A stretch of 64,000 nt of DNA from a virus (lineage: Duplodnaviria > Caudoviricetes). A program made the position numbers and the translations under genes. Numbering within the stretch: the first letter of the stretch is position 1; every line of letters begins with the position of its first letter. This document shows positions 15,054 to 62,200 of this stretch, piece after piece. Location: positions 32,001-96,000 of IMG/VR virus record IMGVR_UViG_3300026549_000043; one strand, 5' to 3'. The notes beneath the pieces were generated by a model. That model was not told where the DNA came from and did no database searches. It worked only from the letters and a program-made list of their open reading frames with translations.

Positions 15054-15085
15054 TTTATATTTTACATTCCATAATGTATAATAAT
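15051..15085 (+). promoter_or_regulatory. Early/sigma-A-type promoter (TAGTTTA...TATAAT) upstream of the RNA island
   Basis: Member of a motif family seen more than 12 times in the window. Confidence 0.65.
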
Positions 15086-15104
15086 AATGTAATCAAAAAA
15101 AAGA

Positions 15105-15362
15105 TGGGTCAAACTCTTCGGAGTCATTTATGAGGTAATCATATATCACATAACTGTAAGGTAATGCAGAAAACAAAGGTTTTAGAGGTGTGTCAAAATC
15201 TGGGGATAACAGTTTGTAATATGATTACATTTACAGGTACGAGTCTTCCTTGTCTAAACATTAGGCCGTGACCTTAAAGGAAATGCTACCCTGAGTTGCA
15301 ATATGGAAACTCTAAAGCTAGTGTGGCCACACGATCAGTTAGATCTCTGAATAAAAGATCAA
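15105..15362 (+). ncRNA. Unassigned structured RNA
   Basis: GTAATCATAT...AACTGT pairs with ACAGTT...ATATGATTAC; ACTC-TTCG-GAGT tetraloop; no credible ORF. Confidence 0.45.
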
Positions 15363-15365
15363 CAT

Positions 15366-15463
15366 ACCTCGGTCTTACTGTCCGGTGACAGGAACGGTCT
15401 TCAAAATCGTAGGACACGGGTCCAACCGTGTTTATGAGGGCTCGACACCTTCCCGAGGTGCCA
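15366..15463 (+). tRNA. tRNA with UCA anticodon, Sec-like architecture (opal decoder)
   Basis: Acceptor ACCTCGG/CCGAGGT + G + CCA; D arm CTGTC-CGGT-GACAG; anticodon arm ACGGT-CTTCAAA-ATCGT; long variable arm ACACGG/CCGTGT; T arm GAGGG-CTCGACA-CCTTC; 98 nt. Confidence 0.85.
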
Positions 15464-15466
15464 TTT

Positions 15467-15541
15467 AGATCTTTGGTGTAATGGTAGCACAGCAGTCTCC
15501 AAAACTGTTAGGTGTGGGTTCAAGTCCTACAGGGTCTGCCA
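15467..15541 (+). tRNA. tRNA-Trp(CCA)
   Basis: Cloverleaf; anticodon loop CTCCAAA; GGTTCAAGTCC; ends GCCA. Confidence 0.93.
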
Positions 15542-15544
15542 GTT

Positions 15545-16200
15545 TACTCTCACCATACACTGAACGTATGCGTAATAAAGGTTCTACACCGTTCCTAACG
15601 GGTAAATCCTAGCGAAAGCTAAAAACGGTGTTTTCTTTGACAATAAATCTGCAATATGGACTATGACAGGTACCACTTAAAAGTCATAGAGAGACTCACT
15701 GGACAGAAAACCAGTCTGACGACAGAACGTCAGAGACAAATACCACCAAAATAGGAATAGTAAATGGTTTGCAAGTATAGAGTCTAAGCAGATTTAGAAT
15801 AAACCGCAGGAAGTGTGTAGCGGTATAGTAAGTGTCAAACATCTTCTGGTAGGGTGCAGACTCATAACAAAGAATCAGCCACTATCGTCGAATCCTATAG
15901 CCCATGGCTCTAATGGACTATGCGTGAAAGCCTGAAAAGGATAAAAAGAGCCTGAAACGCTAGGTAAAAATGAAGGTATAGGCATCGAGCCAACATTCAA
16001 TTAGTTGCCAAGACCTTAAGAAATGTTAGAGGTCTGAAATCTCAAGATAAAACTGGTGGTGCAGCCTTGAGTAAGTAATGCGAAACGTGCCTTCTGGGGC
16101 TTGCATTGTGCAAGCGACCACCAATAGGGCGGGTGGTAAAACATAGGCCGACTTCCTTGCTTAGAACGCTGAACGTAGGCGTGGATGAAGAAAGACTAAG
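15545..16200 (+). ncRNA. Large unassigned structured RNA region
   Basis: Richer in GC than flanks; many hairpins (TAGC-GAAA-GCTA, CTATGAC/GTCATAG, TCTGACG/CGTCAGA, TAAATCTGC/GCAGATTTA); lies between tRNAs; no credible CDS. Confidence 0.5.
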
Positions 16201-16203
16201 TAA

Positions 16204-16288
16204 CTTAACAGTGGTGGAATAGGTAGACACTGGGCAATGGTCGACTTGTCGAAGGAAATTATAAGGTGCAAATCCTTATCTGTTAAGA
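16204..16288 (+). ncRNA. tRNA-like RNA (Leu-type D arm, T arm, no canonical anticodon arm)
   Basis: CTTAACAG/CTGTTAAG stem; TGGTGGAATAGGTAGACAC; ATAAGG-TGCAAAT-CCTTAT. Confidence 0.55.
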
Positions 16289-16378
16289 TAGCTTACGAGT
16301 AACAAATAAACAAACTAGCCGTGGCGAGCTAGGTCGGTGAATATCGACTACAAGTGGTTCGACCCCACCGTAAGCTAT
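16288..16378 (+). ncRNA. tRNA-like RNA lacking a D arm
   Basis: ATAGCTTACG/CGTAAGCTAT 10-bp closing stem, two internal hairpins, GTGG-TTCGACC-CCAC T arm. Confidence 0.55.
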
Positions 16379-16385
16379 ATCATAC

Positions 16386-16876
16386 GTCAGGAGATGTTGA
16401 TTTAAGTCCAACCACTCAGACTGGTTAGAGCCTGAACGAGTGTAGTTTAAGAAAAATCCTGACAAAGTGTTGGTAGACAAGCATTAAAAGTCACTAAGAC
16501 AATAGGAGCTGCGTACATGGTTAAATTGGTGGGTAAGACACCCATACCACAGCAGATGCGTGTGATTGAAACTGCACACCCAACACTATTTCGTTTGGCA
16601 GTGTTCGAGAATAACTGCACACAAAGGGTTCACGATGGTACCTTACTTCACAACCTAGAGCAGTAAAGAAATGCCACAATAGGGCAAAGTAAAGAGACTA
16701 AAGGTAAATCGTTGTAAAAATGGTGATGAAATTGTTGCTCGTCTACGCGCGTAGAAAGAGTATCAGGAGCGTTTAGGCGTTCCTTGCAGTAGCAAATGGC
16801 CTCACGTACAGTACAGTTGGTCAACAGGTAGTAATGGTGCTGCCTGACCAGTGTTGGTTAGCAAAGCTGTACTTTA
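16386..16876 (+). ncRNA. Tandem stem-closed small RNA modules
   Basis: Closing stems GTCAGGA/TCCTGAC, AGTGTTGG/CCAACACT and AGTACAG/CTGTACT with internal hairpins. Confidence 0.4.
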
Positions 16877-16880
16877 ACAT

Positions 16881-16951
16881 TTCTCCGTCGTCTAATGGCA
16901 GGACATCTCACTTTGACTGAGACAATAGTTGTTCAACTCAACTCGGAGAAG
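16881..16951 (+). tRNA. tRNA-Gln(TTG), no encoded CCA
   Basis: TTCTCCG/CGGAGAA; TCTCA-CTTTGAC-TGAGA; GTTCAAC T loop. Confidence 0.88.
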
Positions 16952-16952
16952 C

Positions 16953-17026
16953 GCCGGATTAGTATAAAAGTATTACACCTGTCTTGTAAACAGGATAAAG
17001 CGGGGCAGTACCGTTATCCGGCCCCA
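16953..17026 (+). tRNA. tRNA-Thr(TGT)
   Basis: GCCGGAT/ATCCGGC + C + CCA; CCTGT-CTTGTAA-ACAGG; atypical T loop GGCAGTA. Confidence 0.85.
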
Positions 17027-17045
17027 CTAGAAAAGGAGATTCACT

Positions 17046-17255
17046 ATTAAAGACAAGATTAGAGTATCTGGCACAATCATAGATGTCTTGCCAGGAGATA
17101 AGTTCAAGATTCTTTTATCTAATGAGAGTGAAGTCATTGGGTATTTGTCTGGTAAGATAAGAAAGAATAGGATTAAAATTGTTGAAGGAGATTCTGTAGA
17201 CATAGAATTGTCTATTTATGACTTGTCTAAAGGTAGAATAGTATATAGGAATTAA
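17046..17255 (+). CDS. infA: Translation initiation factor IF-1 with ATT start (not in ORF track)
   Basis: KDKIRVSGTIIDVLPGDKFKILLSNESEVIGYLSGKIRKNRIKIVEGDSVDIELSIYDLSKGRIVYR is a clear IF-1; AAGGAG 7 nt before ATT. Confidence 0.88.
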   Translation: MKDKIRVSGTIIDVLPGDKFKILLSNESEVIGYLSGKIRKNRIKIVEGDSVDIELSIYDLSKGRIVYRN

Positions 17256-59209: not shown

Positions 59210-62200
59210 ATGAATAATATTTTAACTGAGGCCATCGGCGAAGATGGTTTAAACTTCAGAGATATTTATAATAATTTAATGGAATCAACACATAATTTTA
59301 CTGAAGAATCTGGTGATTTTAAATTTGATTCTAGTTTCGAAGCTAGCTTAGCTGAGAATATTTTAAAGGATAAATATTCAGAAGTTGAAATTAAACCATT
59401 AGACATGGATGACGAAAATGAATTATTTTATACAGTACTTTATAAAGATCCTATTATTAAAGAGGATTATAAAGATTTAGATTTTCAAGATAATAAAAAT
59501 CCTGAGGGTACTCCATTAGGTAGTTTTGGTGAATCATTACTTTCTGAAGGACAGAAACCAGCCCATTGGGCAGTTATTAAATCTTCAGGTGGTAGAGGTA
59601 AAAATGGTTGGATAACTAATATCTCTGTTGAGGCTATTCCAAGTGAAATTAAAGACATGAATAGCCTTAAAGGATTTAGTACTTGGGGACCTAATAATCA
59701 ACATGTATCAAATAGATATAAGGCTGATTCTCTAGGTATATTTTCAACCAAAAAAGAGGCTCTAGAAAAAGTAAAAGAATTATTACGTAAAGAGCCTAAC
59801 TATAGAGCCTTTGGAACCAACGCTGAAGAAGTAGAATTACTCGAAAAAATTATTAAGTTTGGCTCTAAATGGCAGGTGCAATCTGAGAAAGGTAAAAATA
59901 TGGGAACTTATAATACTAAAAAAGAAGCCGAAGACAGATTAAAACAGGTAGAATATTTTAAACATATAAATGAAGGTATTTTTAGTAATATTGGTAAAAC
60001 CGCAAAAATAGCTATGTTAGCTAAATGGGTTTCTAATCATGCTGATAAGGTTCAATATTGCTCTAAAAGGGATCAAGATCGCATATTAGAATTATTTAAT
60101 GATATTAAACAGTATTCTAAGAATATTGACATTTTTGATAATACTGAATTTGAAGATGGCGCTGTTGAAGATATTTTAGGCAAAATTGAAGACTGCTATG
60201 AAGATATAAAGGATATTATTAAAAATTCACAAATACATGAAAGTTTTGATTCTGATACTGTAGAAATTTCTTCAAAAATAAAAAATATTAATAATAAGAT
60301 TATTTCACTTTTAAATGGAAGTGATTTAATAAATGAAGACCGTAAGTCAGATATTGAATCTACCCTTTTAGATGGTGAACCTACTTTCGCTGAATATATG
60401 GAAGATAATTATGGCATTGATATCTATGATGATGAAATTGCCGAGAACCCTGATGTAGAAGATCATTACTTAAATGAGTATGAAAGCTATTTAGATCATT
60501 TATATGATTTAGATGATGAAAGTAATTATGATGCAGCCCACGCTGCTGAGTGGATGGAAAGATATCCTCATGGTTACTATAATAATGAGAATGACTATTG
60601 CGTTGATGATGAAGATGGTAGCCCAGATATTGATTTTGAAGAAGACGATGTTGACCCAGATCAATTCTTACAGGCTTACGAGTTAACTAAAGACATGGAC
60701 GAAGATGAAGCTTGGGAATCTATTTCTCAAAGATTCGATAAGGAAAAAGATCTTGGATTCTGGGGACCAGATGAAGCTGAAAGAGGTAAACATGAGGTAT
60801 TTGATTACTGGAAAGAAATTTCTTTAAAGGAAGACTTTGATCCAGAAGATCTTGTTATTGAATGTCCTCAATGTTTAAATGATTTAACTTTTGTTGGCTA
60901 TCAGGGTGATTTAATTGAATTTAAATGTGATAGCTGTGAAAATTATTTCTATATGGATCCTAATACTAAAGAATTACTTTCACCTACTGAACTAGATAAA
61001 AGATATTTAACCGAATCTACCAATGATCTTTATTATTTTAAGATTACAGGCCCAGTAAGAAAGCAGCGTGGGTGGTCTCCTGATGATGAACCTACAGTCT
61101 TTGTAACTGGAATCTGTGATGAATTAAAGGGTAGCAGAGGTTTTAGAGATGGTACTCACGAATTCCGTGAAAGTGATTTAGAACGTGTTGGAGCTAAGGT
61201 CGGTGATACCGTAGCCTGTCATGTTGATTGGGAAACAGATTATGATGGTCATCTAGAGTTAGAAGTAGACGTAGTCAAAAAAGTAGATGAAGTTTTAAAA
61301 GAAGCTAAGAATAAGAATTATAGAGTAGAGCTTTATTATTATGACAATAATAAACCTGACGATGTAATTTATTTCGAAAATACAAAAGCAGCTTATAATT
61401 TCTGTAATAATAAAATTTCAGATAATGCAGATTATGATGATGGCCTTACTGGTATTTTAGTATTTAATGAGGCTAAAGATAAATTATTAAATACCTGGCA
61501 AAATGGTAGCCGAGGATGGGAAAATAAATCTAAGGCATTAACTGAAGAAGTAAACTTACAGCCTGGAGACGTTAAGTGGTCTTGGTGGCTTCATAGATAT
61601 TTAATTTATAAGGGGTTTGATAAATTTTCAAATAAATATGAGTTTGAGGACTTTGGAGATGATTTATTTGACCTTACGGCAGAAGAAGTTTCAAAATTAA
61701 AGGATAAATATGTTAGTAAAAATGAATCTTTAGATGAAGCAAAGACTCAAGAGTATGAGTATACACTTTATAACACGTTTTCAAAGAATTCGTTCCATAA
61801 GAAAGTAAAGTGCTCTTCTAAAGAAGAAGCAAAGAAGATCGCTGATGATGAGTTAAAGAAACTCCAAAAGAATGGACACTTTAAAGACTTTGTTGTTAAA
61901 GGTGTAAAAGAGCTACAAGAGTCTTTAGATGAAGCCAAAAACGATACACTTAATGCTGACATCTGAGATGAAAATAATGAATTAAGACCTGAAGTTAGAG
62001 AAAAATTAAATTTAATTGTAGAAAAATTTAAAGATAATTTATCTGAAGATGGCGTAGATCTAGATATATCAGATATTATTATAGTAGGATCTAACGCTAA
62101 TTATAATTATACTGACAAATCAGATATTGATTTACATATTATAGCTAACTTAGATATTTATAAAGATAAAGAAGATTTAGCAAAAATTGTGTATAATGCT

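Follow-up and report, generated by a model that had tools for sequence, protein, structure and literature searches.

A phage tRNA(UCA) whose variable arm copies the tRNA-Trp anticodon loop: a probable opal suppressor that inserts tryptophan

The stretch of DNA analysed here (the window, 64,000 nucleotides) comprises bases 32001-96000 of a 139,874-bp phage record in IMG/VR, which is 83% complete, has a G+C content of approximately 30% and carries nearly all of its genes on the + strand. Within the window, a block of 2 kb (approximately 15100-17100) holds four tRNAs and no open reading frame of 60 amino acids or more, and its G+C content of 40-50% stands against 30% for the phage. We report the analysis of one tRNA gene of this block, with the anticodon UCA, whose parts are collected in Table 1. 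The original prediction had described a tRNA of 98 nt with this anticodon, a CGGU D loop on an extended D stem, a long variable arm and G73, folding as a 7/5 rather than an 8/5 helix with A1-U72, and lying 3 nt upstream of tRNA-Trp(CCA). The sequence and the cloverleaf fold bear out each of these features, including the seven acceptor pairs, the five T pairs and the 3-nt spacer (15463 to 15467), so that this description is correct as a whole. The main feature that it missed is the loop of the variable arm, GUCCAA, which is a copy of the CCA anticodon loop of tRNA-Trp.

Table 1. Positions of the tRNA(UCA), its parts and the other features discussed in the text (window coordinates unless a locus is named).
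Feature	Position	Strand	Description
tRNA(UCA), probable opal suppressor	15366-15463	+	98 nt including the encoded CCA; cloverleaf fold
Acceptor stem, 5' strand	15366-15372	+	7 pairs with 15453-15459; A1-U72
D arm	15378-15391	+	5-pair stem and flanking A.G; 4-nt loop CGGU 15383-15386; Sec-like
Anticodon arm	15394-15410	+	5 pairs; loop CUUCAAA; anticodon UCA 15401-15403
Variable arm	15412-15433	+	8-pair hairpin; loop GUCCAA 15420-15425; CCA 15422-15424
T arm	15436-15452	+	5 pairs, G51.U63; loop CUCGACA, C54 where U is usual
Acceptor 3' strand	15453-15463	+	Discriminator G73 = 15460; CCA 15461-15463 encoded
tRNA-Trp(CCA)	15467-15541	+	3 nt 3' of the tRNA(UCA); 60.1 bits
Promoter-like site	15054-15082	+	10/12 match, upstream of the tRNA block; weak evidence
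Client ORF, 1039 codons	59210-62329	+	In-frame TGA 61964-61966, codon 919
tRNA(CUA) of phage G070	L240:10262-10354 (also L239)		Trp-type body, GUCCAAA arm; 8 nt after tRNA-Trp(CCA)

A linker of 5 nt separates the acceptor stem of the tRNA(UCA) from its D stem, and the would-be eighth acceptor pair is U.C. U33 and A37 are present in the 7-nt loop that holds the anticodon, and the cloverleaf is of the 7/5 kind, as in phage opal suppressors. The acceptor end matches the bacterial Trp identity in G73 and A1-U72, but lacks the minor Trp elements G2-C71, G3-C70 and G4-C69. In the neighbouring tRNA-Trp(CCA) the anticodon stem has its normal five pairs, and the tandem order of the two genes recurs in five further members of the family described below (all of the Trp-type loci checked). 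Promoter-like sites such as the one upstream of the block are not commoner in the phage than in shuffled sequences.

Several other features of the 2-kb block were recorded. Its only match among GenBank phages is the tRNA-Trp gene; in the related phage G002, positions 16473-16508, which have the look of a promoter and an AGGAG, are 94% identical, and positions 16627-16724 are 79% identical. A large structured RNA was sought in the block, with no match in Rfam and no general excess of fold stability, 15641-15800 being the sole stretch to stand out (z -4.8). At 16288-16378 (+) lies a tRNA-shaped RNA that is called by no tool. A stem of 10 pairs akin to an acceptor stem encloses two hairpins, and a hairpin resembling a T arm (loop UUCGACC) directly adjoins the 3' strand; the RNA folds with a minimum free energy of -29.4 kcal/mol (z -3.65; none of 200 shuffles as stable). 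A tRNA with anticodon UGU (Thr) at 16953-17023 (+), scoring 43.6 bits in Rfam, abuts tRNA-Gln(UUG) without a spacer; ARAGORN misses it in bacterial mode at any threshold and calls it in mitochondrial mode only.

Standard gene finders do not readily see the tRNA(UCA). ARAGORN at its default settings does not call it and at the relaxed setting (-ps80) labels it tRNA-SeC(tca); in Rfam no family reaches its gathering score, the best match being the tRNA-Sec model RF01852 at 39.3 bits against a required 47 (E 1e-6 to 1e-5). The fold of the single sequence is weak evidence in itself (z -1.59, with 12 of 200 shuffles as stable), and its comparison with relatives is far more informative. The homologue in a related phage, whose portal protein is 59% identical, has entirely different stem sequences. 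We aligned the 15 closest relatives, which form a subgroup with a long D stem, using MAFFT, and found 92% of cells to be paired, against 67.6% in shuffled controls and 38-49% when the partners were slid; both sides have changed in 25 of the 30 pairs. All seven acceptor pairs are paired in every one of the 15 sequences and each has changed on both sides, such that the covariation supports a stem of exactly seven pairs, and the D-arm helix and anticodon arm are 90% and 97% paired, respectively. The figure of 76% for the helix of the variable arm is an underestimate, as MAFFT set some of the arms one column off; because of this loss of register, the statistics on the arm given below were taken from a parse of each sequence individually. 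A covariance model (R1) built from the 15 relatives found a single copy in the 140-kb record, at 15366-15463, with a score of 86.3 bits, though this sequence is itself one of the seeds of the model, and there is no second UCA tRNA in the record. Taken as comparative sequence evidence, these data strongly support a real, selected tRNA with the anticodon UCA and a canonical 7/5 helix.

In the genome to which the tRNA belongs, single in-frame TGA codons interrupt many of the large genes. Reading through these restores a T4-type portal, a large terminase, tail fibres and other proteins; the Pfam match of the T4-type portal spans the TGA, and the match of PHROG 36119 to the client ORF listed in Table 1 (residues 904-1024) likewise spans it. 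The best-documented cases lie outside the window, at W288 of the portal and W166 of the terminase. By a crude count, in-frame TGAs number in the dozens and are spread over many structural genes; they make up approximately 13% of the Trp-type codons in the two outer blocks of structural genes and approximately 10% in the middle block, for which the count includes several spurious ORFs. The earlier claim that the TGAs of this genome align with Trp holds well. Set against 14 related loci, the TGAs of the phage face TGG 21 times, TGA 14 times and other codons 11 times, and in terms of residues 21 W stand against a single S; conversely, the TGAs of the relatives fall on W 45 times, on Y 16 times and on L nine times. 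This interchange of TGA with TGG, or W, across relatives shows that TGA means Trp here, as in known code-4 phages (Borges et al., 10.1101/2021.08.26.457843). Genes for TrpRS, a class-I release factor, SelA and SelB, all named in the original prediction as worth a search of the genome, were sought and none was found in the 83%-complete record. The same phage also carries, outside the window (L003:2608-4755), an ORF of 716 codons with an intein splicing domain and an HNH endonuclease, in which there are two in-frame TGAs.

The tRNA(UCA) belongs to a family. Pattern scans of IMG/VR for tRNA(UCA) genes with a 7/5 helix and G73 gave at least 65 distinct genes, and in 64 of 65 the variable arm is a hairpin built around UCCA, on 58 distinct stems of mostly four to eight pairs. 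The consensus loop, N-UCCAA-N, copies the CCA anticodon loop of tRNA-Trp; its commonest forms are GUCCAAA (21 genes) and CUCCAAA (16 genes), the latter being the exact anticodon loop of tRNA-Trp. In a motif-free scan, UCCA lies in the arm of 36 of the 37 sequences with a 7/5 helix and G73 and in none of the true tRNA-Sec. Pair 1-72 is A-U in 52 of 65 members and CCA is encoded in 41 of 65, and the D arms are of three unrelated kinds, approximately half being of the tRNA-Trp type, six of a class-II type and the rest having a long stem and small loop. The gene described here shares the marks of the family in its UCCA arm loop, G51.U63 and position directly upstream of tRNA-Trp(CCA), and departs from the norm in having an arm loop of 6 rather than 7 nt, C54, and C2-G71 in place of G2-C71. 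A crude, local measure of the code-4 signal is clear at 19 of 50 loci around family members and at none of 11 true-Sec loci. None of the 50 arm-bearing phage records encodes TrpRS (nor does any of the 18 that are at least 90% complete), against two of 15 records with a class-I tRNA(UCA) (two of the six complete ones), a marginal contrast (p approximately 0.05) that ignores shared ancestry. The two trpS genes of large phages with an arm-less tRNA(UCA) lie at L165:1495-2478 and L166:1339-2334 (TIGR00233, 304-321 bits), the latter adjoining a gene for Lon protease.

Two of the phages with an arm-bearing tRNA(UCA) have further RNAs of note. One carries, at L088:138-214 (-), a tRNA with anticodon CUA that ARAGORN labels 'tRNA-Pyl', and thus has two suppressor tRNAs; in the other, a phage of 136 kb, ARAGORN finds a tmRNA (L059:987-1411) within a cluster of 24 tRNAs.

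The original prediction saw in this gene a tRNA-Sec scaffold turned into an EF-Tu-compatible decoder of UGA. The second part of this is well supported by the canonical 7/5 helix, a form that EF-Tu accepts, and by A1-U72 and G73 in a TGA = Trp phage whose record holds no selA or selB. The first part fares less evenly. The Sec traits found are the UCA anticodon, the long D stem with a 4-nt loop, the long variable arm and G73; the D arm in particular is Sec-like, a C-G pair closing the CGGU loop, and RF01852 is the best match in Rfam. Against this, the suggested comparison with a Sec model gives a score below the gathering threshold, and the long-D-stem subgroup as a whole scores 39-47 bits whereas three true phage tRNA-Sec genes score 69-75 bits. 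G51.U63 occurs in 61 of 65 family members and also in the adjacent tRNA-Trp(CCA), against two of 14 true Sec; in half of the family the D arm is that of an ordinary tRNA-Trp, and the gene lies directly upstream of tRNA-Trp(CCA). An 8/5 helix and G1-C72 characterise the approximately 14 true phage tRNA-Sec genes recovered by the motif-free scan. The present gene may derive from tRNA-Trp or from tRNA-Sec, or, given the resemblance of its D arm to Sec, be a mosaic of the two. Genuine 8/5 tRNA-Sec genes do occur in phage contigs (L122:28-120, L125:194-284 and L127:1038-1130, at 69-75 bits with RF01852), with no signal of TGA recoding in their flanks. One family member (L048:7384-7476, 47.2 bits) reaches the gathering score of RF01852, and ARAGORN labels nearly all of the members checked as tRNA-SeC(tca); public records probably list such Trp suppressors as Sec tRNAs.

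Published data speak directly to the activity of this family. Seki et al. (10.1101/2025.10.30.685624) tested 31 phage tRNA(UCA) in an E. coli extract with no added synthetase. All 13 of the arm-bearing tRNAs were active, giving 26.7k-58.9k units on a 216UGA-sfGFP reporter (background 5.4k, wild type 69k), against two of the 18 arm-less ones, UCA-12 and UCA-18 (10.1101/2025.10.30.685624). Thus 13 of the 15 clearly active tRNAs in the screen carry the arm. The association in their table is strong (Fisher's exact test, 5e-7, shared ancestry being ignored) and is confounded, since a Trp-like acceptor is likewise common to the arm-bearing tRNAs. Intact-protein mass spectrometry, applied to 13 active tRNA(UCA) that are not individually named, gave Trp for each (10.1101/2025.10.30.685624). 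UCA-3, UCA-6 and UCA-16 are identical to our loci L057, L059 and L078, and UCA-26 is near-identical to L139, which lies in the same long-D-stem subgroup as the tRNA(UCA) described here. The inserted amino acid, which had been left as an open question, can thus be given as Trp on the strength of the codon alignments together with the mass spectrometry on relatives. In the same study, two phages that encode TrpRS have arm-less tRNAs that the E. coli extract does not use (10.1101/2025.10.30.685624). Bacterial Trp identity consists of G73, A1-U72 and C34, C35 and A36 (PMC9976931), and UCA suppressors are reportedly accepted by the TrpRS of E. coli (Borges et al., 10.1101/2021.08.26.457843). Neither the variable arm nor its CCA loop appears in the texts of Borges et al. 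and Seki et al. (the term 'variable arm' occurs zero times), and our literature searches, of incomplete coverage, found no paper in which the arm is described as a copy of an anticodon.

Long-armed tRNA(CUA) were sought in an equally unbiased scan (loci L167-L238), which gave 48 cloverleaves, 34 of them with G73, and provides a counterpart for the amber codon. In 31 of these 34 the loop of the arm reads U(C/U)UGA, in forms such as CUCUGAA and CUUUGAA, which resemble the anticodon loop of tRNA-Gln; one has UCCA, and the Gln-type loop occurs nowhere in the UCA set. The same Gln-type arm is also present in tRNA-CUA-132, -135, -139, -147, -148 and -155 of Seki et al. With Trp-type loops on UCA tRNAs and Gln-type loops on CUA tRNAs, the type of loop agrees with the amino acid for which the stop codon stands, in counts that, like those for the UCA family, are uncorrected for common descent. 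Particularly instructive is the phage with the exceptional UCCA, G070 (IMGVR_UViG_3300028805_000058), a heavily TAG-recoded phage of 146 kb and 93% completeness, whose tRNA(CUA) has a Trp-type body and arm (Table 1) and in which no TrpRS was found. Relatives of its tail-fibre gene were looked for and none was found, and the endolysin (L241:11851-13173) was for this reason used to align its TAG codons. Four of the five TAGs of this gene stand on W columns, with W in 39/39, 39/39, 31/39 and 38/39 homologues, and the fifth falls within a variable linker. Outside this gene, the codons that face TAG are TGG and, in TGA = Trp phages, TGA; the TAGs of G070 were never seen aligned with Gln codons. From these alignments it looks as though G070 reads TAG as Trp, in which case the same architecture, a Trp-type arm, goes with Trp whichever stop anticodon the tRNA carries. 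This assignment is not among the codes reported by Borges et al. (10.1101/2021.08.26.457843), and a literature search of incomplete coverage found no report of TAG = Trp in phages.

We propose that the tRNA(UCA) is a Trp opal suppressor that is charged by the TrpRS of the host and in which the variable arm serves as an identity handle, a reading as a whole to which we assign a probability of roughly two in three. Of its parts, the first is much the firmer: the gene is very probably the phage's own opal suppressor, inserting Trp at UGA. The tRNA would be transcribed within the central, standard-code part of the genome and matured in the usual way of tRNAs, host TrpRS would charge it by way of G73 and A1-U72, and EF-Tu would carry the charged tRNA to UGA codons in the recoded genes, in competition with RF2. 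The putative role of the arm as a handle for TrpRS, which we favour with less assurance, is that of a decoy tRNA-Trp anticodon hairpin with the loop N-U-C-C-A-A-N, which would present TrpRS with C34-C35-A36, a determinant no longer found in the real anticodon, and charging would thereby be uncoupled from decoding. The variable arm sits away from the position of the anticodon, and TrpRS would therefore need a second contact or an alternative fold of the tRNA. Extending this to the amber tRNAs, we lean slightly towards the arm being a portable identity module, in which a synthetase reads the anticodon of the arm and the ribosome reads the stop anticodon of the true arm, perhaps because the two hairpins can stack in two alternative ways.

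It is also conceivable, if unlikely, that the tRNA is a Trp opal suppressor whose arm does not recruit TrpRS at all. The arm could then stabilise the fold, block SerRS or other synthetases, be the relic of a duplicated anticodon arm, or act as a decoy for a host anticodon nuclease or for a modification enzyme or sensor specific to tRNA-Trp. The arm-less UCA-12 and UCA-18, which work with E. coli TrpRS, favour such a reading and the tandem arrangement with tRNA-Trp(CCA) fits an origin by duplication. However, the loop has stayed fixed while 58 different stems covary, and a relic would not remain invariant; the motif is found on three unrelated D-arm bodies; and the type of loop tracks the inserted amino acid, which a purely structural role does not predict.

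That the gene is instead a decaying or non-functional tRNA, with UGA read by C-A mispairing of tRNA-Trp(CCA) or by a host factor, is very improbable. Default gene finders do miss it, its T loop contains C54 and the loop of its arm is only 6 nt long, but all of its stems are intact, with compensatory changes in the relatives and the score of 86 bits noted above for this seed of R1, and the portal and terminase of the phage depend on read-through of UGA. A 4-pair anticodon stem of tRNA-Trp has been linked to the reading of UGA (PMC13092985), and the neighbouring tRNA-Trp(CCA) has the 5-pair stem, not this form.

Charging by SerRS, which would make UGA a Ser codon, is less probable still. The original prediction had expected the long arm to attract this enzyme; the long variable arm and G73 are indeed as in tRNA-Ser and tRNA-Sec, and the size of the arm, not its sequence, is the main SerRS determinant (PMC9976931). 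The expectation is not borne out by the alignment of TGA with W 21 times against S once, nor by the screen of Seki et al., in which mass spectrometry gave Trp for all 13 active tRNA(UCA) analysed, and C2-G71, present here, is listed in tRNA-Leu as an antideterminant against E. coli SerRS (PMC9976931).

A genuine tRNA-Sec working with SelA, SelB and a SECIS element can be rejected: UCA, a Sec-like D arm, the long arm, G73, RF01852 as the top model and the ARAGORN label all point that way, but the helix is 7/5 and not 8/5, the score is 39.3 bits against 47, the record is without selA and selB, and dozens of in-frame TGAs lie in structural genes, the alignable ones at Trp columns.

Two questions left open by Borges et al. 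are how phage suppressors become charged in standard-code hosts and why most recoded phages seem to be without one, a suppressor being detectable in only 35% of code-4 phages (10.1101/2021.08.26.457843). The tRNA(UCA) described here bears on both questions, as a suppressor that finders miss, which fits the 35% figure, and as a tRNA with a conserved second 'anticodon' that matches the inserted amino acid. If the arm is a synthetase handle, it would represent a natural separation of charging from decoding, usable in the expansion of the genetic code, and would account for the use of UAG as a Trp codon by a phage. If the arm is indeed a portable module, one amino acid could be assigned to different stop codons, and the family would span UGA = Trp, UAG = Gln and, in G070, the previously unreported UAG = Trp.

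Phage tRNA(UCA) that suppress UGA with Trp are known, and the design with two anticodon arms, one of them a decoy, is apparently undescribed, no paper on it having been found in literature of incomplete coverage. The tRNA(UCA) of Agate, Jade and other phages (10.1101/2021.08.26.457843; UCA-1 to UCA-31, 10.1101/2025.10.30.685624) are likewise encoded by the phage and read UGA as Trp, and the present genome resembles those of recoded gut and rumen phages in combining a standard-code block with TGA-recoded structural genes. The gene at 15366-15463 differs from these as a Sec-shaped variant that standard finders miss. With bacterial tRNA-Sec (selC, RF01852) it shares UCA within CUUCAAA, the long D stem with CGGU, the long variable arm and G73; it differs in its 7/5 helix (8/5 in Sec), A1-U72 (G1-C72 in Sec), G51.U63 and the UCCAA loop of the arm, in being found without SelA and SelB, and in serving Trp at many sites rather than Sec at rare ones.

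The selC* tRNA-Cys and allo-tRNAs (PMC5389517) are also Sec-like suppressors from metagenomes and phages, some of them with A1-U72 and UCA. Their helices are 8/4 or 9/3, with U73 or a Ser or Ala identity, and one has a dedicated CysRS; with its 7/5 helix and G73 our tRNA falls outside the selC*/allo-tRNA definition, and for none of those tRNAs is a variable arm that copies an anticodon described (PMC5389517).

In the tRNA-Trp(UCA) of code-4 bacteria, the laboratory opal suppressors derived from trpT and su+7 of E. coli, a Trp body likewise carries an anticodon one base away from CCA, but these are class I tRNAs with a variable loop of 4-5 nt, unlike the arm-bearing tRNA. E. coli su+7, a tRNA-Trp with the anticodon CUA, is charged largely with Gln, whereas the arm-bearing tRNA(CUA) of G070 goes with TAG = Trp.

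A further parallel is offered by the tRNA-like structures of plant viruses, TLS-Val of TYMV and TLS-Tyr of BMV (PMC9976931), in which a viral mimic of an anticodon loop, placed outside its normal frame, serves as an identity element for a synthetase; TyrRS, the closest relative of TrpRS, accepts such a rearranged RNA (PMC9976931). Those RNAs are not decoders, whereas here the mimic rides on a tRNA with a different, real anticodon.
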